Source: a candidate division WS6 bacterium OLB20 | Lineage (GTDB): Bacteria; Patescibacteriota; Dojkabacteria; B142; OLB20 | Direction of reading: 5' to 3' | Length of the DNA: 64,000 nucleotides | Assembly (NCBI GenBank): GCA_001567355.1 | Contig: JYNZ01000001.1 | Span: 5,944 to 69,943, forward strand | Shown here: positions 1,147 through 41,625 of the stretch, piece by piece | How the letters are laid out: every line of letters begins with the position of its first letter | Numbering within the stretch: the first letter of the stretch is position 1 | The notes under the pieces: generated by a model | Databases searched by the model: none | The model's input: the letters and a program-made list of their open reading frames with translations, nothing else | What the model was told of the DNA's origin: nothing | Program-made: the position numbers and the translations under genes

Positions 1147-1265
1147 ATCGTTATCGTAACACAGAGTCTGCAGCGAGGTTAAGGTATTTTTAACAAAATA
1201 ACTGTATAGACTATGCAGATATTTGTAATTGCGTTAGTATATCCTTTGACATATTACATGGCGCA

Positions 1266-3548
1266 ATGGCGCAAGATGATCTCCTCCAACAACTCCGTGA
1301 TGGAACGCTTAAGCTGCATGCGCTTGAAGAGCATACTGATGCTGTAACTGCCATGCAGGTGCGGCGGCAGTATATTGCGGAGCTCACACAGGTTTCCCCG
1401 GACAGCTTCGGGCACGTTTCTTTTGAACCTGAAAAACTTCGCAACCGCAATATCGAAAATCTGATCGGATCGGTGGATCTTCCGCTGGGCATCGCCGGCC
1501 CGCTTACTGTGAGAGGGGATGCAGCAGACGGCACGTACTATATTCCTATGGCAACGACCGAAGGGACACTTGTGGCAAGCACCTCAAGAGGTGCAAAGGC
1601 GCTGCGCTTGAGCGGAGGTGTATCTGCTGTGTCTGAATACAAAGGAATGACAAGGGCTCCGCTTCTCAGGGTCCCAGGTGTAGGGCGCGGACAGGAGATT
1701 ATTGCATGGATAAAAGAAAATTTCTCACTACTTTCTGATGCAGCAGCACAAACGAGCAGTCATATTAAACTGCTTGACATGACAGCCCATCAGCTGGGCA
1801 GGGAGCTCTGGCTGCGCATGAGCTTTGATACCGATGAGGCAATGGGGATGAATATGGCTACGATCGCATCTCAGGCTATTGCCGATCACATTACAAAAGA
1901 AAACCCGGACGTGACTCTTGTTGCCATCAGCGGTAACCTCTGCGTTGATAAAAAACCATCCGCAATCAACACACTTATGGGCCGGGGTTACCAGGTGCAG
2001 GCAGAGGCGGTTATCCCGGCGTCTGTCGTCGCTGACGTTCTCAATACCACTCCTGATGCAATCGCTGCAGTTAACATTGGCAAGGTCTGGCACGGAGGCG
2101 CGATTGCCGGCACCGCCGGTGCCTTTAATGCTCATTTTGCCAACATAGTGGCTGCAGTCTACGCCGCAACCGGACAGGATCTGGCTCATATAGTCGACGC
2201 CGCACAGGGATATATCACGATGGAAGCGGACGGGGACTCGCTCTATGTAGCACTGACATTGCCAAGTGTACCTGCCGGTACTGTCGGGGGCGGGACATGG
2301 CTGCCTGATCAGGCAGCAGCACGAAAACTCATGACGACAGATACTGAGGGCAAAGAAGCCAGTTCGGCTGTCAAGCAGTCAGCTATCTTCGTCGAAGTTC
2401 TCGCTGCAGCGATACTTGCGGGAGACCTGAGCCTGCATGCTGCAATTGCCGCAGGGCAGCTGAGCGCTGCGCATAAAAAAATTCGGTCAGGGCAAACGCA
2501 CATGAAAGTACCAGCAAATACAGGAATCATTACTTATGGAGCAGCTATCCCGAGACGTCGCATAAAAACTTCTGAAATCGCCCGTGTCTGGGGCAAGGAG
2601 CCTGAGAGCATTGCGCAGGGACTTGGCGTGCTGGAAAAGACAGTTCCTGCAGCAGATGAGGATGCTGCATCACTTGCTGTCCAGGCCGCGCAGTCAGCTG
2701 TCGCAAATGCAGATGGACTGCCGGCAATCGGTGCCATCTATACAGGTTCTGAGAGTCATCCCTATACTGTAAAGTCTACCTCTGCGATTGTGGGTGAGGC
2801 CTTGGGGATAGAGCATTCCTACACCGCAGCCGATACCGAGTTTGCCTGTAAGGCGGGTACTGCAGGTCTCCAGGCAGTACTGGGCCTGACAGGTTCGGGA
2901 ATGATTGAAGCGGGTCTGGCTATCGGCAGTGACACTGCTCAGAGCAGACCGGGTGATGCGCTCGAGTACAGCGCCGGTGCAGCAGCAGCAGCATTTGTCG
3001 TCGGCACGCAGAATGTGATCGCAGATATTCTCTGGACAGCCTCATTTACCTCTGATACACCTGACTTCTGGAGGCGCGAGCACGAGATGTACCCTTCTCA
3101 TGGCGGACGCTTTACCGGCGAGCCGGCATACTTCAGACATGTTACGTCTGCAGTCAAGCTGATTCTGTCGGAGTCAGACATGAACATTGATGACTTTGAT
3201 CATATTGTCTTTCATATGCCCAATGCCCGCTTTCCGCAGAAGGTGGCAAAGGATCTTGGCGTGAGCAGCAGTCAGCTAGCAGCAGGTTTTGTTGTACCCG
3301 AACTTGGCAACTCCTATTCGGCATGTTCTCTGGTTGGACTCGCGTCTGTTCTTGACCAGGCCGGTCCTGATCAGCATATTCTTCTCTGCTCGTACGGATC
3401 CGGCGCCGGGAGCGATGCATTTATCCTGAAAACAACTGCAGGGATCAAAGAATTTGAGAACACACACTCTGTCAGGACACAGATAGATACAAAGCAGTAT
3501 GTCGATTACACCGGCTATATTACTTCAGCTGGAAAGCTCCACTCATGA
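1266..3548 (+). CDS. fusion protein: class I HMG-CoA reductase catalytic domain plus archaeal-type HMG-CoA synthase
   Basis: Single 760-aa ORF. The N-terminal part has HMGR motifs ENLIGSVDLPLGIAGPL, DAMGMNM and GTVGGGT. After a linker of about 14 aa, the C-terminal part starts IITYGAAIPRRRIKTSEIARVWGKEP, the hallmark N-terminus of archaeal HMGS. There is no stop codon between the two domains. Confidence 0.8.
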   Translation: MAQDDLLQQLRDGTLKLHALEEHTDAVTAMQVRRQYIAELTQVSPDSFGHVSFEPEKLRNRNIENLIGSVDLPLGIAGPLTVRGDAADGTYYIPMATTEGTLVASTSRGAKALRLSGGVSAVSEYKGMTRAPLLRVPGVGRGQEIIAWIKENFSLLSDAAAQTSSHIKLLDMTAHQLGRELWLRMSFDTDEAMGMNMATIASQAIADHITKENPDVTLVAISGNLCVDKKPSAINTLMGRGYQVQAEAVIPASVVADVLNTTPDAIAAVNIGKVWHGGAIAGTAGAFNAHFANIVAAVYAATGQDLAHIVDAAQGYITMEADGDSLYVALTLPSVPAGTVGGGTWLPDQAAARKLMTTDTEGKEASSAVKQSAIFVEVLAAAILAGDLSLHAAIAAGQLSAAHKKIRSGQTHMKVPANTGIITYGAAIPRRRIKTSEIARVWGKEPESIAQGLGVLEKTVPAADEDAASLAVQAAQSAVANADGLPAIGAIYTGSESHPYTVKSTSAIVGEALGIEHSYTAADTEFACKAGTAGLQAVLGLTGSGMIEAGLAIGSDTAQSRPGDALEYSAGAAAAAFVVGTQNVIADILWTASFTSDTPDFWRREHEMYPSHGGRFTGEPAYFRHVTSAVKLILSESDMNIDDFDHIVFHMPNARFPQKVAKDLGVSSSQLAAGFVVPELGNSYSACSLVGLASVLDQAGPDQHILLCSYGSGAGSDAFILKTTAGIKEFENTHSVRTQIDTKQYVDYTGYITSAGKLHS

Positions 3549-4684
3549 AGAAAGTGTTTATTGCCGGTGCAGGAATGACAAAATTCGGTGAGCTCTGGGA
3601 GCAGGATCTGCGCAGTCTGATGGTTGCAGCAGCAGCTGACGCATTAGAATCTTCGCGACTCGGAATTGATGAGATTGATGCAATTTATGTAGCCAATATG
3701 GGAGGTTCAAGTTTTGCCGGTCAGGACCATCTGGGATCTCTGCTTGCAACAGAGCTTGGCCACTATGTTCCGGCATACAGGATTGAAGCGGCATGTGCAT
3801 CAGGCGGACTTGCGGTCAATACCGCATGGCATGCCCTCTCGGCAGGACTTTACAGGAATGTTCTTGTTGTCGGAGCCGAAAAAATGAGTGATGTGTCTGG
3901 TGGTGATGTGACAAAGGGTCTGGCACGAGCTGCGGATGATGAATATGAGGCATATTTTGGTGCAACATTCCCATCCCTGTACGCAATGATGGCACGCGCG
4001 TACATGCACGAGCATAATGCAGACCGCTCTGATTTAGCTGCTGTCAGTGTAAAAAACCATAACCATGGATCATTAAACCCGAAGGCACAGTTTCCGCGCG
4101 AAATAACACAGGAGGACGTTCTTAACGCAGCAATGGTCTCTGATCCCCTTGGACTGCTTGATTGTTCGCCTGTCAGTGATGGGGCTGCCGCTGTTGTGCT
4201 CAGCACAAAGGTCACATCTGTCAGGATTGCAGCCAGTCAGGTCAGCACCGGATCGATCAGGCTGCACGACAGGCCGTCTCTGACCAGTATTGATGCAACG
4301 AAGCGTGCCGCTGCAGCTGCATACAAGCAGGCAGGAATATCTGTACCGGATATCAGCCTGGCCGAGGTGCATGACTGCTTCAGCATTGCAGAGCTGATTG
4401 CTCTTGAAGACCTGGGTTTTGCAAAGCCAGGAGATGCTTCTAAGCTGATCAAGGACGGTACGGTGTATCGTGACGGTACAGTCCCGGTAAATACCTCGGG
4501 CGGACTGAAAGCGTGCGGTCATCCGGTAGGGGCCACGGGTGTCAAGCAGATTGTTGAACTGTATGAACAGATAACCGGTGCAGCCGGTAAACGTCAGCTG
4601 AAGAAAGATATCAGCTTCGGTCTGGCCCACAATGTCGGTGGTTCAGGTGGAACTGCAGTTGTTACCATAGTCGAACATGTATAA
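3545..4684 (+). CDS. archaeal-type acetoacetyl-CoA thiolase (thiolase-like, SCP-x type)
   Basis: N-terminus MKKVFIAGAGMTKFGE is typical of this thiolase type, and the active-site Cys region EAACASGG is present. The start overlaps the stop of the upstream fusion gene by 4 nt (ATGA). Confidence 0.8.
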   Translation: MKKVFIAGAGMTKFGELWEQDLRSLMVAAAADALESSRLGIDEIDAIYVANMGGSSFAGQDHLGSLLATELGHYVPAYRIEAACASGGLAVNTAWHALSAGLYRNVLVVGAEKMSDVSGGDVTKGLARAADDEYEAYFGATFPSLYAMMARAYMHEHNADRSDLAAVSVKNHNHGSLNPKAQFPREITQEDVLNAAMVSDPLGLLDCSPVSDGAAAVVLSTKVTSVRIAASQVSTGSIRLHDRPSLTSIDATKRAAAAAYKQAGISVPDISLAEVHDCFSIAELIALEDLGFAKPGDASKLIKDGTVYRDGTVPVNTSGGLKACGHPVGATGVKQIVELYEQITGAAGKRQLKKDISFGLAHNVGGSGGTAVVTIVEHV

Positions 4685-4982
4685 AAAGAGTCCTCCCAAA
4701 ATGTGGCGCAGACAGCGTGAGCGTTATACGCCAAAAAAGGGTGCCAGTCTTGTTACCTGGTCGGTGGTTCATGTCGCTCCGACGGGATTTGAGAAATACC
4801 TGCCCTACGTTATGGGGATAGTCGAATTTGAGGATAAAACAAGGCTGACTGTTCAGATTGTTGATTGTGACCCGCTCTCTCTCGCTGCTGGCATAATGCT
4901 GGAACCCGTCTTCAGACAGGTGTATGCAGACGATGACGATGGAATCCTCCACTATTCTGTAAAGTATCGCCCTTTACAATAG
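4677..4982 (+). CDS. DUF35 OB-fold protein (partner of thiolase and HMGS in archaeal-type mevalonate complexes), short form without Zn ribbon
   Basis: 101-aa ORF with OB-fold-like region GIVEFEDKTRLTVQIVD. It is overlap-coupled to the thiolase gene. No CxxC pairs are present. Confidence 0.55.
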   Translation: MYKKSPPKMWRRQRERYTPKKGASLVTWSVVHVAPTGFEKYLPYVMGIVEFEDKTRLTVQIVDCDPLSLAAGIMLEPVFRQVYADDDDGILHYSVKYRPLQ

Positions 4983-5009
4983 TCAGGTACAAACCTGTCC
5001 CCTGACTGT

Positions 5010-5036
5010 TGACACATATGGCATTGTTGTATAATC
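5010..5036 (+). promoter_or_regulatory. sigma70-like promoter upstream of the atp operon
   Basis: TTGACA, then a spacer of about 15 nt, then TATAAT, located immediately upstream of the first atp-operon ORF. Confidence 0.35.
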
Positions 5037-5361: not shown

Positions 5362-6150
5362 ATGGGATCTTTCTTTCAGTACGAATCCGAATTACTGCAG
5401 GTTCAATCCGAGGCAGTATTTTCAATCGGTGAGATAGCCGTAACAAACAGCATGATGTCTGCTCTGCTCGTCACCTTCCTGGTGATCCTGCTCTGTATCT
5501 GGGCATCCACAAGCCTGAAAAAAGCGGCTGTACCGGGCAAATTTCAGCTGGTGGTGGAGACGCTGGTGATGACTGCAATGGGGTTTGTTGACAACATCAC
5601 CGGCGACAGCAGGGTTACCCGCAAGATTTTTCCACTGATTGGAGGGTTGCTTATCTATCTTCTGCTTGCTAATACGTTTCTTGTTATCCCGGGGCTGTCG
5701 TCGCTACAATATGACGGCAAACAGATTTTCAGGCCTACAACTACTGATTTTAATGCGACGTTCGGAATTGCGACTGCAATGCTGATCTTTGTGCATCTGT
5801 TTACAATTATGGAAGGTTCACTGCTTGGATTTATTGGTAAATATATCCGCGTAGGTGAGGTGGTTAAGGGCTTCAGACAGGGCATCGGTCCCGGTATTAT
5901 GTCAATAATTGATCTGTTTATTGGACTCCTCGATATTATTTCCGAGTTCGCCAAGTCATTGTCGCTGTCTCTGAGGTTATTCGGCAACATCTTTGCCGGA
6001 GAGCTTCTGAGCTCAGTGATGATGGGGATCTTCGCAATATTTTTGCCTATCCCGTTCCTGGTTCTGTCGCTGTTTTCCGGCGTCGTCCAGGCAATCGTGT
6101 TTGGCGCACTCACGTCTTCCTACTTCGGCATTGCGCTGAAGGAGGAGTAA
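5362..6150 (+). CDS. atpB: F0F1 ATP synthase subunit a
   Basis: Multi-transmembrane protein with the hallmark LSLSLRLFGNIFAGELL motif containing the essential Arg. Confidence 0.9.
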   Translation: MGSFFQYESELLQVQSEAVFSIGEIAVTNSMMSALLVTFLVILLCIWASTSLKKAAVPGKFQLVVETLVMTAMGFVDNITGDSRVTRKIFPLIGGLLIYLLLANTFLVIPGLSSLQYDGKQIFRPTTTDFNATFGIATAMLIFVHLFTIMEGSLLGFIGKYIRVGEVVKGFRQGIGPGIMSIIDLFIGLLDIISEFAKSLSLSLRLFGNIFAGELLSSVMMGIFAIFLPIPFLVLSLFSGVVQAIVFGALTSSYFGIALKEE

Positions 6151-6174
6151 TTTTATTTTAGTCTGTTTTACATA

Positions 6175-6390
6175 ATGGAACCGGAAACTGCACAGTATCT
6201 GGCAAAGTCACTTACGGTTCTCGGAATGGCTGCAAACGCCATCGCTGAGGGCTGGGTGGTCTCTTCTGCTTTTAAGGCAATCGGAAGAAACCCCAAGCTT
6301 GAAGAGACAATGTTCAGCAAGGTGATTATCTCTGTTGCTCTTGTAGAGTCAACAGCGATTTACTCACTTGTTGCATTCTTCCTGCTCTAG
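6175..6390 (+). CDS. atpE: F0F1 ATP synthase subunit c
   Basis: 71-aa hairpin proteolipid with a conserved carboxylate in helix 2 (VALVESTAIYSLV). Confidence 0.9.
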   Translation: MEPETAQYLAKSLTVLGMAANAIAEGWVVSSAFKAIGRNPKLEETMFSKVIISVALVESTAIYSLVAFFLL

Positions 6391-6398
6391 CATCTAGC

Positions 6399-6432
6399 GG
6401 GTGCTCTGAACTCAGAGCACCCGAAGTTTTTT
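6399..6432 (+). terminator. intrinsic terminator/attenuator hairpin between atpE and atpF
   Basis: Perfect 11-bp stem GGGTGCTCTGA / TCAGAGCACCC with a 2-nt loop, followed by GAAG and a TTTTTT run. Confidence 0.6.
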
Positions 6433-6443
6433 ATTATACGGTT

Positions 6444-6953
6444 ATGGATATACAAGAAGTATTCGGAAAAATAGGGTTTGATGGCAGGATGTTCCTGTTT
6501 AATGTGATCAACTTTCTGGTTGTACTTATATTGCTGCGAAAGTTCTTCTTTAATAAATTGATGGAGGCACTGGATGCACGTCAGGCGAAGATCAATGAAG
6601 GACTTGAAGATGCTGAGCGCTACCGGCATGAGGTCACAATGGCACAACAGCGCAGTGACGAGATCATCAGTGACGCCCGGACAGAAGCAAACACCATCGT
6701 GCTCAAAGCTCAGGAGGAGGCACGAACAGGTGCAGAGGTTATTCTGAGCGATGCCCGTGAGCAGGTCGAAGCTGAGAGAGCAAAGGCAGAAGAACAGATT
6801 GAACTGTCACGCAGGAAGATGATTGCAGATCTGAAGAAAGAAACTGCAGACCTCGCAATCCTTGCAACTGAAAAGATAATCAAGGAGAAGCTTGACAGCA
6901 AGCGCGATCGTGAGATCATCGATGAGTATCTGAGTCAGCTTGATTCAAAATGA
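6444..6953 (+). CDS. atpF: F0F1 ATP synthase subunit b
   Basis: N-terminal transmembrane helix followed by a long charged coiled coil (AERYRHEVTMAQQRSDEII...). Confidence 0.85.
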   Translation: MDIQEVFGKIGFDGRMFLFNVINFLVVLILLRKFFFNKLMEALDARQAKINEGLEDAERYRHEVTMAQQRSDEIISDARTEANTIVLKAQEEARTGAEVILSDAREQVEAERAKAEEQIELSRRKMIADLKKETADLAILATEKIIKEKLDSKRDREIIDEYLSQLDSK

Positions 6954-7228
6954 GATCAGATAGAAAGCATAAACGCAGCAAATACAAACGCAGACAGAAA
7001 CCAGAGGTAATCTCTGTCGTTTCTGCTGTAGAACTTGACGATTCGACACAAAACAGGATTCATGAGTTGTTTGGAGACAACCTGCGTATGGAAGTTACAA
7101 CCGACCCTGAAGTAATCGGAGGGATCGAAATCAGAAAAAGAACTGAACTGTTTGACGGTACGATTGCCGCACAGCTCAAAAAGTTACGACATAAATTGTA
7201 CAATCTTAAAGCATATGGCAGAGACTAA
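6950..7228 (+). CDS. atpH: F0F1 ATP synthase subunit delta, truncated to the C-terminal domain
   Basis: 92-aa ORF. The segment [60 protein letters not shown] matches the C-terminal delta/OSCP motif DPSLIGG...GSVRGRL. The N-terminal helical domain is absent. It is overlap-coupled to atpF and atpA. Confidence 0.6.
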
Positions 7229-8723
7229 AGCGATTGTCAGTTCGCTCAAAAAGGGTATTGAGGAATTTGACACAGACGTATCCCGCGAAGAAGTCGGAGA
7301 GATCGTCGAAGTTAAAGACGGCATTGTAGTGATTGAGGGATTGAAAAATGTCCAGTCACAGGAGATGCTTGCGTTTCCCGGGGGCGTGGCAGGACTGGCA
7401 CTTAATCTGGAAGCCGAGACCGTAGGAGCAATTGTTCTTGGAGATTACACAGGTCTCAAGGAAGGTGATGTTGTCAGAAGAACAGGCAAAATCATGTCCA
7501 TTCCGGTTGGCGAAGCTATGGTAGGACGTGTAATTAATGCGCTTGGACAGTCTATTGATGGTGCTGGAGAGATCGAAACCATGGAAGAAAGTCCGATAGA
7601 GAAGATTGCTCCTGGTGTCATCACCCGTGAACCTGTTGGAGTGCCATTGCAGACTGGCATCAAGGCGATAGACGCGCTCATCCCCATCGGACGCGGTCAG
7701 CGTGAGCTCATCCTGGGTGACCGTCAGACAGGCAAGACTACGATTGCCGTTGACACTATTATCAACCAGAAGGGTCAGGATGTCATCTGCGTATATGTGG
7801 CTATAGGACAGAAAGAATCCAAGGTCGCACGTACTGTAAACATGCTTAAGGATCGAGGTGCTATGGACTACACGACCGTTGTTCTGGCAAGCGCTTCTGA
7901 TCCGGCACCTATGCTTTATCTGGCACCTTATGCGGGAGTCACACTGGCTGAATATTTTGCGGCCAAAGGCAAGGATGTGCTGGTTGTATACGACGACCTG
8001 ACCAAACACGCCTGGGCCTACCGCGAGATGTCGCTGCTGCTGAGACGTCCCCCGGGACGCGAAGCATACCCGGGAGACGTGTTTTACCTTCATTCACGCC
8101 TTCTTGAACGTGCAGCAAATCTGAATGACAACTTTGGAGGCGGTTCAATCACTGCTCTTCCTATCATCGAGACCCAGGCGGGCGATATCTCGGCATACGT
8201 TCCGACCAATGTGATCTCCATCACTGACGGTCAGATTTTTCTCGAGACAAATCTGTTTAACAAAGGTACACGTCCTGCAGTAAATGTCGGTCTCTCGGTA
8301 TCCCGTGTCGGAGGTGCTGCACAGATTAAACCAATGAAAAAAGTTGCAGGTAGTATGAAACTTGACCTGGCTCAGTTCCGCGAGCTCGAGGCATTTGCAC
8401 AGTTTTCAAGTGATCTGGATGCTGACACACGCAAGCGTATCGAGCGTGGCCGGCGCATTACCGAAATGCTCAAACAGCCTCAGTACTCTCCGTTGCCTGT
8501 TGAACAGCAGGTACTGGCAATCTTTGCAGTCAGTAACGGTTATTTTGATGACATGAAGGTTGAGGACATCAAAAAAGCTGAGGCGGATTACGTGAAATTT
8601 ATTGAAGGTACACGCCCTGCTCTGGTTGAAAAAATCAGACAAGGCGAATGGGCAGATGAGATGGTTGAAGAGCTCAAGCAGGCAAGTCAGGAATATATCA
8701 ATAAACAGAAGAAATCTGACTGA
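7215..8723 (+). CDS. atpA: F0F1 ATP synthase subunit alpha
   Basis: Walker [10 protein letters not shown] chose the internal ATG (MAETKAIV...), giving about 502 aa, rather than the ORF-track start at 7152. Confidence 0.9.
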
Positions 8724-11062: not shown

Positions 11063-11479
11063 ATGGTCCATTTGCAGATCGCTACGCCTGATGGCGTTGC
11101 CTACGAAGACAAGCAGATAGATTTAATCACAATACCGACGGAGTCAGGTGTGATTTCAATCGGTCGTGACCACTATCCTCTTGTCTCGATAGTCACAACA
11201 GGTGAGATCCTGATCCAGAAAGGCGAATACACGGTAGAGCTGGCTGTATCACGCGGCATTGTTGAAATCAGACGCGAAAGCACGGTGTACATTCTTGCTG
11301 ACACTGCCGAACGTGCTGAAGATATAGATATCGAACGCGCAGAAGCTGCCCGCCAGAAAGCCGAGGAGTACATGAAGCAGAAACAGAATCTGGCTGATGT
11401 CGAATTTGCCAGGCTTCAGGCTAAGATCGAAAAAGAGCTTGCCCGCATCCGTGTGGCTCGCAGATACCGAAAGCGCTAA
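11063..11479 (+). CDS. atpC: F0F1 ATP synthase subunit epsilon
   Basis: N-terminal beta-sandwich region plus a C-terminal helical region (AEDIDIERAEAARQKAEEY). Confidence 0.85.
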   Translation: MVHLQIATPDGVAYEDKQIDLITIPTESGVISIGRDHYPLVSIVTTGEILIQKGEYTVELAVSRGIVEIRRESTVYILADTAERAEDIDIERAEAARQKAEEYMKQKQNLADVEFARLQAKIEKELARIRVARRYRKR

Positions 11480-14886: not shown

Positions 14887-17295
14887 TTATCTTCGGACAG
14901 CTTTGCTGAATAGTGTACCCAGCAGCGGCATTATTCCCGAGTAGATCAGCAGAAGAGACAGAACCAGCTGCCACTGATCTGACACTAACGGTATAAGCTC
15001 GAAGATCTGCTGCAGCTGCGGTGTGTACATGACAAGTACAAAAAACAGTACAGTCAGCGGAGCGATGATCATGATCCTGCGCGGGATGAAGATGCGCTGG
15101 ATAAGATAGCTGCCGGATATGGTAAACAGGTAGTTAACCACCCCGACAAATGTCAGAAACGCAAGTACCATTGTCTGCTGCAGTCTGAGATCATAGTCAT
15201 TCGTGATGGTCATCAGATACAGGGTCAGAACGCCTGCCGGTATACCTGCTGCAGCAAGAAACACCATCAGGTCGCGCAGAAAATGCGGCTCATCTGTATC
15301 ATCTGGTTTTTCAAGAACAATCGCTAATACCGGTATGCTGCCGTTTGTAAATGCGAGCAGAAACAGACCGAGCGGGTAAAACGCAAATGGAAGCCCTAAC
15401 AGCAATGCGCCGATGATAATAATGATTGAATAGGCGTGCCGGGAGATCAGAAGCTGGGCTGACCGCAGCGTGTTGATAAGAATAATTCTGCCCTCAGTAA
15501 CAACATCGGCAAGTTTTGCAATATCATCGTCAAGCAGAATAATATCAGCAATGTTGCGGGTTACATGGGCCCCGCTCCCCATCGCAACACCAAGGTTTGC
15601 CTGTTTGATTGCGAGCGCATCATTGACACCGTCACCGACCATTGCCACATAGCTGCCATCACTCTGCAGTTCTGTGATGATCTGCACTTTCTGCTCCGGA
15701 GAAACGCGGGCAAATACATCAGTGTTTCTCACCAGGTGTGAAAATTCAGCCTGGTTTGCGGATGCTGATGCCAGTTCTTTGCCAGAGGTGATAGTTTTGA
15801 TTTCGCTCAGACCCAGCTGCGCGGTTAGCGCTCTCAAGGTCTCTGGATGGTCACCGGAGATAATGACCGGTTTTACACCCTTGCTGGTGAAATTTTCGAT
15901 TATCCCCCGTGCCCCGGCCCTCAGCCTGTCCTCCATACTGATAAGTGCCAGCGGCTGGTATGGACGTCTGGCATCGGTAAGTTCGGGGTGTCTCACGGGT
16001 CCGGTGTCCCGAAACAGTATGACAAGATTACGCTTACCTTCATGCGCCCGTTCCAGTTCACGTTTCGCAATTCCTGCGGCATCTTCGGGTGACATATACT
16101 CTGTAAGACTTTCCAGCGAGCCGAGCAGCAGCTGAAAACGGTTACCCTTATATGTCAGGTCGATCCCGCTCATTTTTGTTCGCGATGTAAACGGGAGCTG
16201 ATGGTGGATTTCAGCACTTTGCACCTGCCTGCCCAGATGGGCAAACTTTTCTGCAATCGCAGTGATGGTCTTGTTCTGCTCAAGCGTGTGTTCGCAGTAC
16301 AGTGCCGTCAGCACGTCTGCAGGGATCTTGCGTTTGTCGGGTGCGAACGGGAGAAAGTCAGTCATCTTCAGTCTGTTTTCCGTAATCGTTCCCGTTTTAT
16401 CCATGCAAAGATACCTGATGCCTGCGAGAGTTTCGATAGTGCTTGCCTTCTGGACAATGATACGGCGTCTGCCCATACGCACTGCACCAAGAAGAAATGC
16501 GATTGTCAGAGTAAGTACAATACCCTGCGGCACCATTGAGCTGATAACTGATACAACGATGTTTGCCATCTCGACCTGCGTGTATTCATCAAGAAGAACG
16601 TTTCGGACCAGCAGAAACGCAATGATGGCAATCGTAAGGTATGTCAGCGCCTTAAGGATTACGTTTACATGCCGCTGTAATGGTGAGAGGTATGCGACAT
16701 AGGTCTTTGCCTCGCTGGTGATCTTGTTTACAAAGCTCTCCGGTCCGACCCGGGTTGCCGTATAGTATCCCCTGCCTGCAACAATAAATGATCCTGACAG
16801 CAGTGTATCCCCGACCTGCATTGCATTGTAGTCAGACTCGCCGGTCAGGATTGATTCGTCAATCAGCAATGCCTCTGACTCAATGATGTCTCCATCAACG
16901 TAGATATATTTGCCTGATTCGATAACCAGCAGATCGCCAAGCACGATGTCTTCCGGATCGATCTCCTGCTCTTTTCCGTCTCGGACAACGGTAACAGTCT
17001 CCTTGCTGAGCAGCTGAATCTTCTTCAGCGAATCCCTGGCACGGACCTCCTGATAGACAGATACAATGATGTTTGTGACAACGATCAGCGAGATGATGAC
17101 AGCGTCTTTGACTTCGGCATAGACAAACAGAAAAACTACCGAAACAAAAATGATCAGGTTGGGAAGATCAATCAGCGTTCCGGCAATTATCTGCCAGACT
17201 GATTTGGTATCAGGCTGAATGTAGGTGTTTGTGCGTCCCTGCTGGGTAAGTTTATCAACTTCTGCCGTGCTGAGTCCGCGTCTGCTGGTTTTCAT
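14887..17295 (-). CDS. cation-transporting P-type ATPase (P2/P3-like)
   Basis: Phosphorylation motif CMDKTGTITEN, TGES actuator motif, hinge MVGDGVNDALAIKQANLGVAMG, and about 10 transmembrane segments. Confidence 0.9.
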   Translation of the reverse strand: MKTSRRGLSTAEVDKLTQQGRTNTYIQPDTKSVWQIIAGTLIDLPNLIIFVSVVFLFVYAEVKDAVIISLIVVTNIIVSVYQEVRARDSLKKIQLLSKETVTVVRDGKEQEIDPEDIVLGDLLVIESGKYIYVDGDIIESEALLIDESILTGESDYNAMQVGDTLLSGSFIVAGRGYYTATRVGPESFVNKITSEAKTYVAYLSPLQRHVNVILKALTYLTIAIIAFLLVRNVLLDEYTQVEMANIVVSVISSMVPQGIVLTLTIAFLLGAVRMGRRRIIVQKASTIETLAGIRYLCMDKTGTITENRLKMTDFLPFAPDKRKIPADVLTALYCEHTLEQNKTITAIAEKFAHLGRQVQSAEIHHQLPFTSRTKMSGIDLTYKGNRFQLLLGSLESLTEYMSPEDAAGIAKRELERAHEGKRNLVILFRDTGPVRHPELTDARRPYQPLALISMEDRLRAGARGIIENFTSKGVKPVIISGDHPETLRALTAQLGLSEIKTITSGKELASASANQAEFSHLVRNTDVFARVSPEQKVQIITELQSDGSYVAMVGDGVNDALAIKQANLGVAMGSGAHVTRNIADIILLDDDIAKLADVVTEGRIILINTLRSAQLLISRHAYSIIIIIGALLLGLPFAFYPLGLFLLAFTNGSIPVLAIVLEKPDDTDEPHFLRDLMVFLAAAGIPAGVLTLYLMTITNDYDLRLQQTMVLAFLTFVGVVNYLFTISGSYLIQRIFIPRRIMIIAPLTVLFFVLVMYTPQLQQIFELIPLVSDQWQLVLSLLLIYSGIMPLLGTLFSKAVRR

Positions 17296-18678: not shown

Positions 18679-19383
18679 TCAGGTGCTGACCGCATGCAAT
18701 ACCTCAGTCACGCTGTAAACTGGTGACAGCATATTCGAATCAAGAACCCTGGCAGCCTGCTGCAGATAGGCTGTTTCTGTCTGGTTATCCTCATTGTAAA
18801 ACACAGAAACCGGTACACCTGCGGCATATGCCAGTTGTGCAGCCTGATGCGTTCCTCCTCCCTTTTTAGCCTCGACAATAACCAGGTGAGAACACATCGC
18901 TACGATCAGCCTGTTACGTTCGATATACAGTCGCTTGTGATACGGAGTACCGGAAGGATACTCGGAGAGCAAAGCCCCCATCTGGCTGATCACGCGCGCA
19001 GTCGACAGGTTGGTTTTGGGACGGATATCGTCCAGCGGTCCCGGCAGGACCGCAATTGCTCTGCCCGCTTTACTTAGCGTCCCTTGCAGCGCAGCGGTGT
19101 CTGATCCGAGAGCAAGTCCCGATACTACTGTTCTTCCCTGCAATGCAAGCCCGGCACCGAGCTGAAATGCAAAATTGCGTCCCTCGATTGTGACGTCCCG
19201 GGATCCTATGATGGCTACCGGGTGCATGTCATTTTCGAGCAGCTCGCCGCTGATAAAGAGCCGGTCCGGTAAAGGTTTTGCTCGTACTGTCCTTCCATCG
19301 GCGCGGTAGGATGCAGGCAGGTTCCGCAGAAAGAGGGTTTGCGGATTCAGGATCTGTTCTGGTGGCCGGATCGGGTTTTCCAT
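18679..19383 (-). CDS. dprA: DNA processing protein DprA/Smf (short form)
   Basis: DprA Rossmann-like motifs GSRD...LALGSDTAA...IAVLPGPLD...LSEYPSGTP...RNRLI...VVEAKKGGGT. Confidence 0.8.
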   Translation of the reverse strand: MENPIRPPEQILNPQTLFLRNLPASYRADGRTVRAKPLPDRLFISGELLENDMHPVAIIGSRDVTIEGRNFAFQLGAGLALQGRTVVSGLALGSDTAALQGTLSKAGRAIAVLPGPLDDIRPKTNLSTARVISQMGALLSEYPSGTPYHKRLYIERNRLIVAMCSHLVIVEAKKGGGTHQAAQLAYAAGVPVSVFYNEDNQTETAYLQQAARVLDSNMLSPVYSVTEVLHAVST

Positions 19384-32487: not shown

Positions 32488-35400
32488 TCAAAAGAACCTT
32501 GTCAGCTTCTCGAGAATCGTCTCTCTACTCTTGGCACGTTCCTGATTTGGAGTAAAGCGAGACTTGGGTGGCATGACCTTTGTCAGTGCAGTACCTGATG
32601 TCGTTAGACCACCATCACGAAAGGCACTCTCGATGTATTTATACGTTGCCTCTTTGTTCAGGTTTTCTTCGTTAATAATCTGCTCCAGTTCTTCTATCTT
32701 CTTTTTTTCGACATATTTGTGCCACTCGGTGTCAACTGCTGCTTGAGAATCCAGTGACAGAATAAACTGATTGATCAAGTCTTTTTTGTTGCGTAGTTCA
32801 ACACTGGAGTCGATAGCCTTGTTAATGTCCACCAGAATCTCTTTATCTTTGGTATGACTGTCATGATACTGTTTGATCAGCCTTAGAATATAGTCAATGT
32901 TTATTTCGACCTGTTTGATCAGTTCCATCTCAAACACCAGGTCATCATTGATGTTTTCCTTCTCGCCCTTATCTTTGTCGCGGAACTCGTTGTAGAGGTC
33001 GATGTACATGCTGTGATAATCCTGCACGTCCCTTGGTGACAGGATTTCGTTACCTGCAAACTCGTCAAATGTGACAAGAATATTGCGGACACGCAGAATT
33101 TTTCCGTACAGCTTAATAAAGTCCTTCTGGTGTTGTTCACCTTCGATGCGCTCACCAATGGGGTACTCGGCAATAAGCTGTTCGATCAAATCTTTGTAGC
33201 CGGGTACATCCTTGCCTTCATCCGTGTAGCCTTCGTAGTAGTCCTTGTATGGTTTAAGCAGTACGATTCCGCTTGCCTCTTTATCGCCAAACAGGGCGAT
33301 TGCCTCGTTTGTCTTACCCTCCAGATTGCGGAAGCAGACGATATTACCAAATGTTTTTACACTGTTAAGGATGCGGTTGGTGCGTGAGTATGCCTGTAAT
33401 AATCCATGCATGCGCAGGTTTTTATCAACCCACAGCGTGTTAAGAGTTGTGGCGTCAAAGCCTGTTAAAAACATGTTAACAACGATCAGAATATCAACCT
33501 CAGTTTTTTTGACACGTTCGCTGACGTCTTTATAGTAGTTCTGGAACTTATCTGAGGAGGTATCATACGATGTGCCGAACTGATTATTGTAGTCTTTGAT
33601 TGCATTCTCTAAAAAGTCACGTGAGCTGGCATCCAGTCCGCTGGTATCCTCTGAATTTTCATCGATCATACCGTCCAGGTCTTCGTCGTTAACTCCAAAG
33701 CTGTATATCAGGGCAAGTTTGAGCTGTTTGTCGCTGGGTAGACCTTCAAGCTGTCGCTTAAACTCAGCGTAGTACTTTTTGGCTGCATCAATGGAGGATA
33801 CGGCAAAGATTGAGTTAAAGCCTGCCAGTCTGCGATCTTGAATTTTGTAGTAACTGTTGCGTTTGGTCTTTTGATCAAAATGCTCTCGGATGTAGGTAAC
33901 AATATTTGCCAGTCGCTCGGGGGACTCAAGTGCCGCTGCGCGGTCAATGTCGTTTACCTGCTCGTCTTCGATATCTTCTGCCTCGCGCACGGTCGAGACG
34001 TAGTCGACCTTAAAGGGCAACACATTTTTGTCATTGATGGCATCAACGATGGTATAGGTATGCAGTTTGTCTCCAAAAGCCTGCTGCGTAGTTTTAAAGT
34101 CCGGTCTGCCACCTGATGAGGCATTGACTGCAAAAATTGGTGTGCCGGTAAAGCCAAACAGATGGTAGTTGTTAAATGCTTTGGTGATGGCGGCATGCAT
34201 ACTGCCAAACTGTGATCTGTGACATTCGTCAAAAATCAGCACGACATGTCCATCAAACAGTGTGTGCCCACTGTTACGGCTAATAAACCTGTCCAGCTTT
34301 TGAATAGTCGTGATGATAATACGGGCGTTTGGGTCTTCTAGCTGCTTTTTAAGTATCTTTGTTGAGGTATTACTGTTGGCTGCTCCTTCCTCAAATTTGT
34401 CGTATTCCTTCATGGTCTGGTAGTCCAGGTCTTTACGGTCAACGACAAATACGACCTTGTCGACATCAGGCAGTTTGCTGGCAAGCTGAGCTGTTTTAAA
34501 ACTGGTCAGCGTTTTACCAGAACCTGTGGTGTGCCAGATGTAGCCACCTGCCTCGACTGTACCTGTTTTTTTGTAGTTGGTGCTGACCTCGATGCGGTTA
34601 AGGATGCGTTCTGTAGCGACAATCTGATAGGGTCGCATCACCAGAAGCTGCTGTTCGGAGGTAAATACACAGTAACGTGTCAAAATTCGCAGCAGTGAAT
34701 GTTTGGCAAAAAACGTCTTGGCAAAGTCGATCAGGTCAGTAATCGGTTTGTTGGTGGCATCTGCCCACCAGCTTGTGAACTCAAAACTGTTGCTGGTACG
34801 TCTGCCCTTTTTGGCTTTAGCAGAGCTGGTGCTGTCTTTAATGTGCTGCTTGCGGGTGGTGTTACTGTAGTACTTGGTATGTGTACCGTTTGAGATGACA
34901 AATATCTGCACGTACTCAAACAGTCCGGATTCTGCCCAAAAGCTGTCACGCTGGTAGCGGTTGATCTGATTAAATGCCTCCTGGATTGCCACACCTCGGC
35001 GCTTAAGCTCAATATGCACCAGTGGCAGACCGTTTACCAGCACGGTTACATCATAGCGATTGGTATAGTTGCCTTTATCTGTTGAGTACTGATTGATAAC
35101 CTGCAGGGTATTATCATGAATGTTTTCTTTGCTCAGCAGGTAGATGTTTTTACTTGTGCCGTCATCCCGTTTTAGTGTTTTGATGTAGTCCTCCTGGATT
35201 GTGGCAGTTTTTTCGGCAATGCTCTGGTTTGAGTTGGCAATCTCAGTACCAAAAAAGTGCTGCCATTCGTTATCACTAAAGGTGTAATCATTAAGCTTCT
35301 CAAGTTGGGTGCGCAGGTTAGCTTTCAGGTCTTCAGAGGTTGTGATATTTAAGTACTCATAGGCCTGTGACTCTAACTGCTTAATAAATGCTTGCTCCAG

Positions 35401-35508
35401 CTCTGCCTCGCTTTGATAGTGTTCTGCTCTTTTTGTATCACGGGTGTATTCTGCCACAACTGTGCTTTGGTTACTTTCAATGACCAGGTTGTACTTGGGG
35501 TCAGACAT
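32488..35508 (-). CDS. hsdR: Type I restriction enzyme R subunit
   Basis: Helicase motif I HTTGSGKTLTS, motif II LIFDECHRSQFG, and a nuclease region upstream. 1006 aa. Confidence 0.9.
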   Translation of the reverse strand: MSDPKYNLVIESNQSTVVAEYTRDTKRAEHYQSEAELEQAFIKQLESQAYEYLNITTSEDLKANLRTQLEKLNDYTFSDNEWQHFFGTEIANSNQSIAEKTATIQEDYIKTLKRDDGTSKNIYLLSKENIHDNTLQVINQYSTDKGNYTNRYDVTVLVNGLPLVHIELKRRGVAIQEAFNQINRYQRDSFWAESGLFEYVQIFVISNGTHTKYYSNTTRKQHIKDSTSSAKAKKGRRTSNSFEFTSWWADATNKPITDLIDFAKTFFAKHSLLRILTRYCVFTSEQQLLVMRPYQIVATERILNRIEVSTNYKKTGTVEAGGYIWHTTGSGKTLTSFKTAQLASKLPDVDKVVFVVDRKDLDYQTMKEYDKFEEGAANSNTSTKILKKQLEDPNARIIITTIQKLDRFISRNSGHTLFDGHVVLIFDECHRSQFGSMHAAITKAFNNYHLFGFTGTPIFAVNASSGGRPDFKTTQQAFGDKLHTYTIVDAINDKNVLPFKVDYVSTVREAEDIEDEQVNDIDRAAALESPERLANIVTYIREHFDQKTKRNSYYKIQDRRLAGFNSIFAVSSIDAAKKYYAEFKRQLEGLPSDKQLKLALIYSFGVNDEDLDGMIDENSEDTSGLDASSRDFLENAIKDYNNQFGTSYDTSSDKFQNYYKDVSERVKKTEVDILIVVNMFLTGFDATTLNTLWVDKNLRMHGLLQAYSRTNRILNSVKTFGNIVCFRNLEGKTNEAIALFGDKEASGIVLLKPYKDYYEGYTDEGKDVPGYKDLIEQLIAEYPIGERIEGEQHQKDFIKLYGKILRVRNILVTFDEFAGNEILSPRDVQDYHSMYIDLYNEFRDKDKGEKENINDDLVFEMELIKQVEINIDYILRLIKQYHDSHTKDKEILVDINKAIDSSVELRNKKDLINQFILSLDSQAAVDTEWHKYVEKKKIEELEQIINEENLNKEATYKYIESAFRDGGLTTSGTALTKVMPPKSRFTPNQERAKSRETILEKLTRFF

Positions 35509-35534
35509 CAGTATGGCGTGTAAGTGTTAAATAA

Positions 35535-36768
35535 TCATGAAGTCTTGAGTTCTTTAAAGGTAAGCAGTTTGTTGCGGTAGTACTCGTATTGTTTGCGCCG
35601 AGCGTTGAGCTCGGCAGGGAGACCGACGGTTAAATCGGTAGTTAATCTATTGAAACGATCCAATACATCAACTATTTTTTCTTGTTCTTCTTTTGTTGGA
35701 ATGGGAATTTTGGCTTTTCCAATCCATTTTGAATGTATTGATGAGATCTTTGCCGTTCGTATATGTCTCCTTATCTGCATGCGAAACTTTTTTCGTTTGT
35801 AAGAAGTACGATACGTATTTCGGATTTAGTTTATGTGTAAAAATGAAGCAAGCATCATGAACAACTATATCCTGCTCACCAAGCCAAGCAACTCCACCAC
35901 CAATGTCCTCAATTGTCTCGCCAGCTGCGACAATCACAACATCACCGTGCTTTGCAACACGAAGCCTGTTTGCTAGAGTCTCGGGTAGAAAAGAGATTGC
36001 ATCAGTTGCCCATGCACCATAGTGTGTGTACATTTCCCCATAATGAATACATGGTTGTCCTGTATCGACGATGTCGTCCTTTACAAATCTCTTGCCACGA
36101 GTAAACATACCTACTTCATCGAGTGGTTTACATGGTGACTTTTCAAGTACGTACAAATCTTCTAAGAAATACTCATACTGCTTCCTCCTCGCCTCCAGCT
36201 CTGCCTCCAGCTCTGCCTCCAATTGTGTGAACTTGTCGAGGATGCTGACAATCTCCTGCTGGACTGCGAGGGGTGGGAGGGGGATTTTGAAGCTTCTAAT
36301 CATCTCCAGATTTAATCCTCCCCTTGTACCATCACCCGAGGAGATGGTCCGAAGCTGTTGGTACTGGGTAGATAAGAAGTGATAAAGAAAATCACTATCA
36401 AGTCTTTCGTTAGGAATGATTGAGCAGAGAGACTGATTTGTACATAATTCAATTCGTGTTCTAGCGACAAGTCCTCTTGTCTTGCCCTGTCCTGCAAGCG
36501 CAATCACTACAGTGTAAGGAGGCACTAGTTTTGTACTACATGAATCATATCCTACTTGTGTGATTTTTTTGTCGGTTTCAAATATCGTTTTCTTATTAAC
36601 TTCTCCTGAACTCATCCAAGGAATTGTTCCGTTCTCCCAGAATTCTGTCACCTTTGATCTAGGAGTTGCACCTGCTAAGCATTCGGCAACTTCTTCAATG
36701 AATACAAATTCGACTCCTTCAGGGCATTTCTCGGCAATCAATTGTTCGAGTTTGGATTGGTGGTTCAT
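35535..36768 (-). pseudogene. hsdS: Type I restriction-modification specificity subunit, frameshifted near the C-terminal conserved region
   Basis: The 366-aa ORF holds target-recognition domain 1, the central conserved region IPLPPLAVQQEIVSILDKFTQLEAEL and target-recognition domain 2. The C-terminal conserved region (IPIPTKEEQEKIVDVLDRFNRL) is in another frame, in an 81-aa ORF. A T6 run at about 35788-35793 lies in the junction zone. Confidence 0.75.
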
Positions 36769-37289
36769 GGTGTAATCTGTTCAATAATTGTGTCAAATTC
36801 GATTGGCTCTTGGTATTGTCTCCCAGCGGGAAGAATAACTTTGAATGCAAATTGATAGTTAAGTCTCTCGTCATTTATATATGCTTGTAACTTTTCACTA
36901 TCATCAATAGTAGAGCTGGATTTCTTAGCTTCGATTACTGCTAGGTTGTTACTTGTTCCGCGATGGTGAATAATAATATCAGGGTATACAGACACACCGC
37001 CGTCCAAAATGTCTTGTAGAAACTTTCTTCGTTTATCTGTTGGCGCTGATTCTAATTTGCTAAGTACTTCTTCTTGCTTTTCACTCCACAGTTGCACTAA
37101 CTTACCCTCACCTAAGGTTCTGTTATATTCGCAATCTACATTCCAGTCTGGAAGCAATTGTTGCAAATACTCTGCAAGTTTATGAGTGATGCTGCGTTCA
37201 CTAGCATCTACCTGTAGTAGAAGACCGTCTCGAGCTAGAAGCGTTTGGTATGCAGTAATGATTTTTGCTTTTAATGGGTCAGCAGTCAT
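36765..37289 (-). CDS. hypothetical PD-(D/E)xK nuclease-fold protein
   Basis: VYPDIIIHH...LAVIEAKK gives the hhhD...ExK spacing. It lies between the ATPase gene and hsdS on the same strand with 1-4 nt gaps. Confidence 0.4.
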   Translation of the reverse strand: MTADPLKAKIITAYQTLLARDGLLLQVDASERSITHKLAEYLQQLLPDWNVDCEYNRTLGEGKLVQLWSEKQEEVLSKLESAPTDKRRKFLQDILDGGVSVYPDIIIHHRGTSNNLAVIEAKKSSSTIDDSEKLQAYINDERLNYQFAFKVILPAGRQYQEPIEFDTIIEQITP

Positions 37290-37290
37290 G

Positions 37291-39875: not shown

Positions 39876-39876
39876 A

Positions 39877-41456
39877 TTATTTGTCCTCAATATCCCTGAC
39901 AATCTCATCTATCGCCACCCGCAACTCCTGCTGCTTTTTTACAATCTGCTCAATCTCTTTGTTGAGTTCCTTGATATCAATCACCTCACGGGTATCCTCT
40001 GCTTCAACATAGGTTGAAACACTGATTGTGTAGTCGTTTTCTGCAATCTCTTTGTTGTCCACCAGTCTGACAAAGTACTCTTCGTCTGTGCGGTTTACGT
40101 ATGCATCCAGAATTTTTATACGGTGAGGTTCGCTGAGTTTGTTTTTATTGCCGCTGCGTACAAACTGCTCTGAGGCATCAATAAACAGGGTTTTGTTATC
40201 TTTTTTACTCTTTTTAAGCACGATGATGCAGGTGGCAATGGTCACACCAAAAACAGGTCAGGTGGCAACTGGATTACCGCATCAACGTAGTTGTTATCAA
40301 TCAAGTACTTGCGTATCTTTTTTTCTGCACCGCCTCGGTACAGTACGCCCGGGAACTCAACAATGGCTGCTGTTCCACTGGTAGATAGCCACGAAAGCAT
40401 GTGCATGGTAAAAGCCAGGTCCGCTTTGCTTTTTGGTGCAAGTACTCCTGCCGGTGAAAATCTGGGGTCGTTAATGAGTAGCGGGTTGGCATCACCCTCC
40501 CACTTAATTGAATATGGCGGATTGGAGACAATAGCGTCAAATGGTTCGTCATCCCAGTGTTTAGGGTCAGTCAGCGTATCTCCGTGTGCTATGTCAAACT
40601 TTTCGTAGTTGATGTCATGCAAAAACATGTTGATACGACAGAGGTTATAGGTAGTCAAGTTGATCTCCTGCCCAAAAAAGCCCTGTCGCACGTTGTCTTT
40701 ACCCAGCACCTTGGCAAACTTGAGCAGTAGCGAACCTGATCCACAGGCAGGGTCATAGACTTTGTTTACTGACGTTTTGCCAACTGTAGTGATTTCTGCC
40801 AGTAGTTCACTGACCTCCTGCGGGGTAAAAAACTCACCTCCGGACTTACCTGCGTTAGATGCGTACATGCTCATCAGGTACTCATAGGCATCACCAAAGG
40901 CATCTATCGAGTTATCTGCATAATTACCAATCTTTAGACCTGCTACTGCCTCCATCAGGCTGGTGAGCTTTTTGTTGCGTTTTTCGACTGTATTTCCGAG
41001 CTTTCCTGAGCTCACATCAATATCATCAAACAGTCCCTTAAAGTCATCCTCGCTGTCTGCACCATTGGCAGAGCCCTCAATATTATTGAATATCTTCTCT
41101 AGTGTTTCGTTAAGATCGGGATCGTTTTTGGCACGTTTAACGACATTGGTAAACAATTCGCTGGGCAGGATATAAAAGCCCTTTTCTTTAACGGTGTCTG
41201 CCCTGCCGTATTCGGCGTCTTTGTCTGCGAGTGTGGCGTAGTCAAAGTCTTTGTTGCCTGCGCGCTGTTCTTCTTTATTGATGAACTCGGTCAGGTTTTC
41301 GCTGATAAAGCGGTAAAACAACATACCAAGCACGTACTGCTTAAAATCCCAGCCATCAACGCTACCACGCAGGTCATTGGCAATCTGCCAGATGGCGCGG
41401 TGTAGTTCTGAGCGTTCCTGGTCTTTGGTTACGGTTTTAGTATTTAACTTTGCCAT
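39877..41456 (-). pseudogene. hsdM: Type I restriction-modification DNA methyltransferase subunit, frameshifted
   Basis: HsdM N-terminal domain ([14 protein letters not shown]) and catalytic SNPPYS. The ORF ends ...QLPPDLFLV*, and the next ORF continues TIATCIIVLKK...LFIDAS. Canonical QLPPxLFFGTxIATCI would be restored by one extra T in the CTGTTTTTGGTG run (plus-strand A5 at about 40249-40253). Confidence 0.85.
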
Positions 41457-41625
41457 AGTTCTTCTGATTAATATTAAACTTGTTGCGACCGATATTCGAT
41501 CCAGAATAAAATAATGATGCACAATCACTATTTACGGTTATCATTTTTCCCATGAAGATGTCTGGACTACTTCTGTTTTGATTATACATCCAGTAAGTGA
41601 ACTAAATAACCCTCAAATATTGCTG

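Follow-up and report, generated by a model that had tools for sequence, protein, structure and literature searches.

In the mevalonate pathway the thiolase reaction runs thermodynamically uphill, and archaea overcome this barrier by channelling acetoacetyl-CoA (CoA, coenzyme A) within a complex of thiolase, HMG-CoA synthase (HMGS; HMG is 3-hydroxy-3-methylglutaryl) and a DUF35 protein. Here we describe the corresponding genes in a 64-kb stretch of DNA (hereafter the window, meaning the whole stretch that was analysed) from the candidate division WS6 (Dojkabacteria) bacterium OLB20, an uncultured ultra-small bacterium of the candidate phyla radiation (CPR). In this genome HMG-CoA reductase (HMGR) and HMGS are encoded by a single open reading frame (ORF), and the DUF35 protein has no zinc (Zn) ribbon.

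The thiolase/HMGS/DUF35 complex of Methanothermococcus (6ESQ) resembles the OLB20 locus in its adjacent genes, in the conserved catalytic Cys and His residues, in the E-C-H-N tetrad and in the HDxF/GHx motifs. It differs in that the OLB20 DUF35 protein is without the ribbon (residues 15-47 of chain E), in that the OLB20 HMGS carries a complete HMGR at its N-terminus, and in that the OLB20 complex is a predicted one. Another point of comparison is the mevalonate gene set of the CPR: these bacteria, Dojkabacteria included, have archaeal-type acetoacetyl-CoA thiolase (AACT), HMGS and class I HMGR (HMGR-I) that fall into CPR-specific clades and lie in gene clusters, and vertical inheritance has been argued for them (Hoshino and Gaucher, 2018; PMC6107057). 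The window fits this description fully; the differences are that DUF35 goes unmentioned in that paper (0 occurrences) and that its text has no HMGR-HMGS fusion.

Fusions that involve these enzymes take several other forms. Two reverse-order proteins, P0234 (791 aa) and P0260 (759 aa), likewise combine these two activities in a single polypeptide and have a class I reductase; they differ from the OLB20 protein in running from HMGS to HMGR and in having an HMGS of the bacterial/eukaryotic type (PF01154 and PF08540), and they are singletons. Enterococcus faecalis MvaE, reported by Hedl et al. in 2002 to be a dual-function thiolase/HMG-CoA reductase, is also a natural bacterial fusion of two upper-mevalonate enzymes. 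It differs in joining steps 1 and 3, in pairing a thiolase II with a C-terminal reductase of class II, and in that it is not known to have a DUF35 partner. Fusions of DUF35 to the N-terminus of archaeal-type HMGS occur in Lokiarchaeota (MCK5587973.1-like, 506 aa, with Zn ribbon and oligonucleotide/oligosaccharide-binding (OB) domain; P0162/P0292) and in Aenigmarchaeota (MCD6274473.1-like, 453 aa, with the OB domain only). These resemble the OLB20 protein in the position of the added domain and differ from it in that the scaffold, not the reductase, was added. Two further natural HMGR fusions were seen, one with a GHMP kinase (HMGR-GHMP kinase, P0160, 815 aa) and one with Sua5/YrdC (Sua5/YrdC-HMGR, P0151, 626 aa). 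The Friedel-Crafts acetyltransferases PhlABC and MucABC (5M3K, 9SKH) are homologous to the thiolase/HMGS/DUF35 trio and have the same three-protein architecture; they have lost the tetrad and HDxF and retained the Zn ribbon, whereas the OLB20 proteins are opposite on all three counts (PMC12960953).

The fused gene and its operon

The OLB20 locus encodes a thiolase, an HMGS, an HMGR and an OB scaffold, all of them intact, in one predicted transcription-coupled unit of three genes (Table 1). The stop of the fusion ORF shares an ATGA (3545-3548) with the thiolase start, and the thiolase stop and DUF35 start overlap by 8 nt, which agrees with the overlap coupling described in an earlier sequence-only reading of this DNA. 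Taken as a whole, we are fairly confident in identifying the locus as the standard CPR/Patescibacteria "upper mevalonate" operon, with the order HMGR, HMGS, thiolase and ribbon-less DUF35. The G+C content of the module (0.48-0.53) is unremarkable against a range of 0.35-0.54 window-wide.

The two halves of the fused ORF meet in the DNA CAA ACG CAC ATG AAA GTA (His412 at 2499-2501, Met413 at 2502-2504), and neither a stop nor a change of frame comes between them. The exact 760-aa protein is NCBI GenBank KXK27566.1 of candidate division WS6 bacterium OLB20, and the same protein is found on independently assembled Logan contigs from the runs SRR29904086 (10,605 bases) and SRR29904084 (9,309 bases), whose DNA is 100% identical to the window; the OLB20 organism is present in a third run too, SRR29904083. 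Since the NCBI metagenome-assembled genome (MAG) and both Logan assemblies agree in every base at the junction, we take the fusion not to be an assembly error, and the in-frame HMGR-HMGS join reported in the sequence-only reading stands. The linker of about 14 aa that was reported with it does not: it is merely the gap between profile boundaries and is made up of two natural tails. Standalone HMGR relatives stop near residue 412 of the fusion, give or take a few residues (with AHEKFGRGGRHENK or AHAKLGRRGQ as the last residues before the stop), and standalone HMGS relatives begin at a Met equivalent to Met413. The natural C-terminus of HMGR therefore abuts the natural start of HMGS, with no added or dedicated linker.

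Table 1. Coordinates of the mevalonate operon and its flanking elements in the window.
Feature	Position	Strand	Remarks
17-nt element ATGGCGCAATGGCGCAA (ATGGCGCA twice) at operon head	1258..1274	+	second ATG (1266) is the HMGR start
Fused ORF, class I HMG-CoA reductase and archaeal/CPR-type HMG-CoA synthase	1266..3548	+	760 aa
HMG-CoA reductase domain	1266..2501	+	residues 1-412; PF00368, 6hr7_A
Fusion junction CAC (His412)/ATG (Met413)	2499..2504	+	site of stop or overlapping start in relatives
HMG-CoA synthase domain	2502..3548	+	residues 413-760; NF003274, TIGR00748, 6esq_I
Archaeal/CPR-type acetoacetyl-CoA thiolase	3545..4684	+	379 aa; NF004720, 6esq_A
DUF35 scaffold homologue	4677..4982	+	101 aa; N-terminal W-R helix and OB fold; PF01796, 6esq_E
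Putative operon boundary: hairpin GTCAGG...CCTGAC, TTGACA, 15 nt, TG-TATAAT	4983..5033	+	read from sequence

Identity of the enzymes

In the reductase half, PF00368 (HMG-CoA_red) covers residues 30-406 of the fusion (E 1e-109, 367 bits against a cutoff of 27), and the best solved homologue is the archaeal class I reductase 6hr7_A (8e-89). Alignment to human 2q1l and archaeal 6hr7 shows that the catalytic residues are kept: E64 (IENLIG), K229 (DKKP), D305 (GQD) and H403 (AAH), whose counterparts in human HMGR we take to be E559, K691, D767 and H866. The class II reductase model TIGR00532 gives only 52 bits, and the assignment to class I, the NADPH type, is clear, though the score lies under the trusted one of the TIGR00533 equivalog.

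The synthase half is matched over residues 418-758 by two archaeal HMGS equivalogs, with 466 bits for NF003274 (cutoff 244) and 420 bits for TIGR00748 (cutoff 353), whereas TIGR01835, which models bacterial mvaS, gives it 119 bits against a cutoff of 360. Its match to 6esq_I reaches 1e-113, and the alignment identifies the E-C-H-N tetrad as E496, C528, H650 and N682, corresponding to the archaeal HMGS tetrad E82/C114/H238/N270 (PMC12960953). The thiolase belongs to the archaeal/SCP2-like subfamily (it scores 475 bits with NF004720, whose cutoff is 420; the narrower equivalog NF053570 gives 441 bits, under its cutoff of 600), and in alignment with 6esq_A (1.4e-96) it has Cys84 in CxS, His276 in HDCF and His326 in GHP. 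A 2026 study found these motifs to be essential for HMG-CoA formation and to have been lost in the derived PhlABC/MucABC acetyltransferases (PMC12960953). Their presence argues for mevalonate chemistry rather than chemistry of the PhlABC/MucABC type, and the locus is predicted to encode the conversion of acetyl-CoA to mevalonate, not a secondary-metabolite acylase or a PqsD-like enzyme. The NCBI product name of the fusion ORF, "PQB biosynthetic 3-oxoacyl-ACP synthase III", is wrong. The top solved homologues of the locus are three 6ESQ chains (from Methanothermococcus thermolithotrophicus) and, for HMGR, 6HR7, in line with the earlier view of these proteins as archaeal-type enzymes and partners of the thiolase/HMGS/DUF35 complex.

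Relatives and origin of the fusion

Two protein searches were made, one word-indexed (5.8 billion clustered proteins) and one exhaustive (1.84 billion representatives). The exhaustive search gave relatives closer than those of the word-indexed one, P0121 for HMGR (about 52-53% identity) and P0124 for HMGS (53%). P0121 is WKZ28179.1, from the complete 1.17-Mb Candidatus Dojkabacteria genome CP129475, and the locus that encodes it (L003) has the same four mevalonate genes and the same flanks as the window. From an opposite-strand ABC transporter the order there runs through HMGR, HMGS, thiolase, a 103-aa ribbon-less DUF35 and a small ORF to the F1Fo ATP synthase operon and a P-type ATPase, and its proteins are 52% (HMGR), 67% (HMGS), 65% (thiolase) and 59% (DUF35) identical to those of the window. 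The difference lies at the junction: in L003, HMGR and HMGS are separate, HMGR ending in RHENK and a stop at 11242 and HMGS starting with an ATG at 11229 in the +1 frame, so that the two overlap by 14 nt in different frames. Overlaps are found in other Dojkabacteria too, namely an ATGA in L110 (CAA TGA / ATG A) and 14 nt in L109.

A wider scan, of GTDB species representatives, gave 31 CPR-type loci with HMGR immediately or closely 5′ of HMGS, among them Roizman-, Davies- and Levybacteria, Peri-/Peregrinibacteria, Parcubacteria, Paceibacterota, Saccharibacteria and several MAGs labelled Gammaproteobacteria; a metagenome scan gave 76 further HMGR-HMGS loci. HMGR and HMGS are always separate ORFs in these 31 and 76 loci, with not one fusion. 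The locus scans also cover a gap in the protein searches: the exhaustive search missed the query itself, so fusions may hide under single-domain cluster representatives. A search with the junction-spanning part of the protein (residues 341-480) found no match, not even the query's own entry, and is hence uninformative, and a literature search found no paper on a natural HMGS-HMGR fusion. Among the loci and databases searched, the OLB20 fusion is a singleton, an isolated new variant of a known module and not a conserved innovation. In 23 loci one in-frame stop (a mix of TAA, TAG and TGA) alone separates HMGR from HMGS. Readthrough or recoding of the stop was considered for these loci and rejected, as the stop codons are mixed and the frequency of about 21% is near chance expectation.

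Neighbour-joining trees built on sequences extracted from the loci split CPR-type from archaeal sequences with bootstrap values of 98/100 for HMGS and 64/100 for HMGR, and the window sequences group with those of Dojkabacteria (L003, L109, L110, L111), at 100/100 for HMGR. Both domains of the fusion, for which the sequence-only reading had proposed phylogenies as a check, thus nest in the CPR clade with Dojkabacteria. What the same reading called an archaeal-style module in a bacterium is no oddity here; it is the normal CPR arrangement, described in 2018 (PMC6107057) and seen here in about 100 CPR-type loci. We regard the module as vertically inherited in the CPR, and a recent archaeal transfer is not supported.

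The trees and scans also yielded observations on other genomes. Some GTDB representative MAGs from third-party (TPA) assemblies bear the label uncultured Gammaproteobacteria or Pseudomonadales (L010, L013, L015, L062, L069, L073, L086). Their HMGR-HMGS-thiolase operon is nevertheless of the CPR type, and in those whose DUF35 was inspected it has no ribbon. Both trees put these MAGs inside the CPR clade, and the taxonomy assigned to them is probably mistaken. In L052 (Bathyarchaeia, 6028-8291) HMGS comes first and HMGR begins only about 24 nt behind it, so that the CPR order is inverted, and in most archaeal loci HMGR lies 3.7-6.7 kb downstream of HMGS.

The state ancestral to the fusion would have been an HMGR stop overlapping the HMGS start in a different frame (ATGA or 14 nt), as in the Dojkabacteria relatives. 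A small indel just 5′ of the ATG would take the stop out of frame, and translation would then read on into Met413 of HMGS. From an L110-like state, for example, one inserted base (CA-ATGA to CAC-ATGA) would do this and would create no linker. The fusion has the look of a simple shift of frame at a place where stop and start overlapped in the ancestor; we infer this path from relatives that, at 52-67% identity, are too divergent for the actual event to be reconstructed.

A DUF35 protein without a Zn ribbon

The DUF35 protein of the window matches PF01796 (the OB domain) alone, at residues 22-80 (54 bits, cutoff 27); the N-terminal, rubredoxin-like four-Cys Zn ribbon (zf-ChsH2, PF12172) and CxxC motifs were looked for with Pfam and in the sequence, and none was found. 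In alignment with 6esq_E (4e-15), residues 8-18 pair with 4-14 of the chain and residues 19-100 with its residues 48-128; what is missing, chain residues 15-47, is exactly the Zn-ribbon segment. The sequence-only reading had remarked on a short protein of 101 aa without CxxC and thought it unusual. The length and the missing motif hold good; the feature is not peculiar to this genome, as it runs through the whole clade: the DUF35 gene 3′ of the thiolase encodes 98-103 aa and no CxxC in 22 of the 22 CPR lineages examined, as against 129-140 aa and mostly two CxxC in archaeal DUF35 partners. When the 22 CPR-type sequences (window included) are aligned with 8 archaeal ones, a single clean gap of 32-33 columns appears, flanked by a conserved N-terminal W-R helix and a conserved OB fold. 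The N-terminus MYKKS (ATG 4677) is common to the window, L003 and L168, and its conservation makes the 101-aa start preferable to the annotated 93-aa start.

Zinc is bound by every structurally characterised DUF35 protein, and in 6ET9 the thiolase is contacted by the cleft between the Zn ribbon and the OB domain of DUF35 (PMC6996347). CPR thiolases were searched for an indel that might compensate for the lost ribbon, and no clade-wide indel of more than 2 residues was found. A protein search with the DUF35 sequence returned the query and one 73%-identical relative, whose 3.1-kb contig ends short of the junction. The DUF35-HMGS fusions of Aenigmarchaeota (P0266/P0278, 453 aa) have the OB domain only, and loss of the Zn ribbon is therefore not confined to the CPR. 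A literature search found no paper linking DUF35 with the CPR, and the ribbon-less DUF35 is a clade-level CPR feature that appears undescribed.

Proposed function and alternative explanations

In the scheme that we propose, the thiolase would convert two acetyl-CoA to acetoacetyl-CoA, HMGS would form HMG-CoA from acetoacetyl-CoA and a third acetyl-CoA, and HMGR would convert HMG-CoA to mevalonate with a nicotinamide cofactor. By analogy with the archaeal 6ESQ complex, the thiolase and the HMGS part of the fusion would assemble on DUF35, and acetoacetyl-CoA would be passed on via a shared CoA site. The tethered HMGR would be active and would sit on the N-terminus of each HMGS subunit, a position that, to judge from the natural DUF35-HMGS fusions, tolerates an added domain. 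The fusion would fix a 1:1 stoichiometry of HMGR and HMGS, would co-localise the third step, and would make HMGS synthesis independent of translational restart, in a genome whose genes show no Shine-Dalgarno motifs. We think it probable, on balance, that the fused protein is fully functional in the complex. Real three-step channelling from acetyl-CoA to mevalonate is plausible, though in our view less likely than not, and the same holds for the fullest form of the scheme, in which the reductase is built into the thiolase/HMGS/DUF35 assembly to give one three-step particle on a minimal zinc-free DUF35 scaffold evolved by the CPR.

A number of observations weigh against the scheme. The HMGR half does not reach the TIGR00533 equivalog (381 bits against a trusted cutoff of 441.8). 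Its catalytic His403 lies 9 residues ahead of the junction, on the C-terminal segment; work on 6HR7 is said to show that this mobile segment shuts over the active site in class I reductases, and a tether without linker could hinder the closure. Assembly of the complex without the Zn ribbon is assumed, and the thiolase-contact cleft in 6ET9 involves the ribbon. Neither protein search gave another fusion of HMGR followed by archaeal HMGS, and the 23 loci that stand one stop from fusion are all unfused, which suggests that fusion is not generally advantageous and is maybe neutral or mildly harmful. A singleton that has the look of a simple frame change also makes a weaker case for a selected three-step channelling device. 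As for the later steps of the pathway, the downstream kinase and decarboxylase, to which the sequence-only reading had pointed as a check, did not turn up where they were sought: no mevalonate kinase, phosphomevalonate kinase, decarboxylase, IDI (isopentenyl diphosphate isomerase), IPK (isopentenyl phosphate kinase) or prenyltransferase was found by Pfam among all other ORFs of at least 70 aa in the 64-kb window, and no downstream mevalonate gene lies within 10 kb on either side of the L003 locus in CP129475.

The explanation that competes most closely grants that the fusion is real and holds that it is without consequence or mildly harmful: a recent chance frame change, after which the two halves work as before and HMG-CoA is not channelled. 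This is a serious possibility, if short of a probable one. That about 100 loci and two large protein searches gave no second case, that so many CPR loci one stop away have stayed unfused and that the junction has no linker are all points in its favour; yet every catalytic residue is kept in both halves, the identical sequence in the GenBank MAG record and in separate runs shows that this is not a transient variant, and proximity and 1:1 stoichiometry are enforced even if the change is neutral. It is also conceivable, though we consider it quite unlikely, that the long ORF mostly yields two proteins, with an internal start at Met413 giving free HMGS and the fusion polypeptide a minor product. 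Met413 is the ancestral HMGS start, and start choice in this genome does not seem to rely on Shine-Dalgarno motifs, as no such motif occurs in the 18 bases before the start in any of the 50 window ORFs of at least 150 aa (0/50). However, with no stop before Met413 a coupling of termination to reinitiation is impossible, and there is no promoter-like site just upstream of 2502. Loss of a Shine-Dalgarno motif after fusion (L003 has GGAGG before the HMGS start, absent in the window) was considered as well and is uninformative, given that none of the 50 window genes has the motif.

The remaining alternatives concern the reality, the source and the chemistry of the locus. It is very unlikely that the genes are really separate and overlapping and that the fusion was produced by an error of sequencing or assembly, for instance a one-base indel: a single base does separate the fused state from the ATGA-overlap state, and the fusion is confined to one genome, but three assemblies from different data sets have identical DNA over 9-10 kb, and the junction context, ACGCACATGAAA, is not a homopolymer. 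A recent transfer of the module from an archaeon was suggested by the word-indexed search, in which the named top matches of the HMGR half are Thermoproteota and other archaea at 44-46% identity. That search overlooked the nearest relatives, so that its archaeal "best hits" are misleading; the syntenic Dojkabacteria proteins are 52-67% identical, both domains fall in the CPR clade and the G+C content is unremarkable, and we regard such a transfer as highly improbable. It is scarcely credible that HMGS, thiolase and DUF35 together form an acyltransferase like PhlABC/MucABC that has been put to a new use, or that the synthase is PqsD-like. Bacterial HMGS/ACAT/DUF35 loci (ACAT, acetyl-CoA acetyltransferase) do frequently encode such enzymes (PMC12960953), and the NCBI product name points the same way; against this, the E-C-H-N tetrad and HDxF, both lost from those enzymes, are present in the window proteins, the synthase carries a fused HMGR, and the matches to PhlA (5m3k, 5e-56) and PqsD (3h76, 4e-16) compare poorly with that to archaeal HMGS (1e-113).

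Other features of the window

The 17-nt element at the operon head, ATGGCGCAATGGCGCAA, is identical in the window, in L003 (9993-10009) and in L110 (466-482), where the HMGR proteins are only about 50% identical; it was not found in L111 or in other CPR loci. In the window and in L003, HMGR (MAQ...) starts at the second ATG of the element. In L110 the element lies wholly upstream of the start (ATG 485), which argues that it is conserved as nucleic acid, and an operator and a signal in the 5′ leader are both conceivable roles. Another string, (C)GAATGATTT, is found at or near the HMGR start in Microgenomates/Parcubacteria loci (L008, L009, L020, L044, L051, L069); it may be merely a conserved N-terminus (M-I-F/L) or another start-site signal.

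At the other end of the operon, the stretch between the DUF35 stop and the small ORF that precedes the ATP synthase operon resembles a terminator followed by a promoter, and would mark where the mevalonate operon ends and the ATP synthase operon begins (Table 1). A consensus promoter scan did not list this site because its spacer is 15 nt and the scan needs 16-18 nt. Elsewhere in the window, TATAAT-like boxes only 6-10 nt upstream of the ATG in several ORFs (for instance 14887-17295, 18679-19383 and 60830-61660) suggest mRNAs that have a very short leader or none. A type I restriction-modification island at 32488-41528 lies where the G+C content of the window is lowest (0.35-0.44), with hsdR (32488-35508), hsdS (35668-36768), AAA/ABC-like ATPase ORFs in between and an hsdM split into two overlapping ORFs (40242-41528 and 39877-40245).

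Implications

If the reductase is built into the thiolase/HMGS/DUF35 complex, OLB20 would have a natural three-enzyme mevalonate metabolon together with a second, ribbon-independent mode of assembly. A protein that tethers the reductase as well would be a ready-made template for compact acetyl-CoA-to-mevalonate modules, and a test case for whether flux gains from covalent fusion. The Zn-ribbon-less scaffold is worth structural follow-up and is more broadly useful than a fusion in one genome: all CPR versions examined do without the ribbon, which makes up half of the thiolase-binding cleft in the solved DUF35 structures. The ribbon-less DUF35 thereby shows what the scaffold can dispense with, and its sequence can serve to tell operons of the CPR type from those of the archaeal type.

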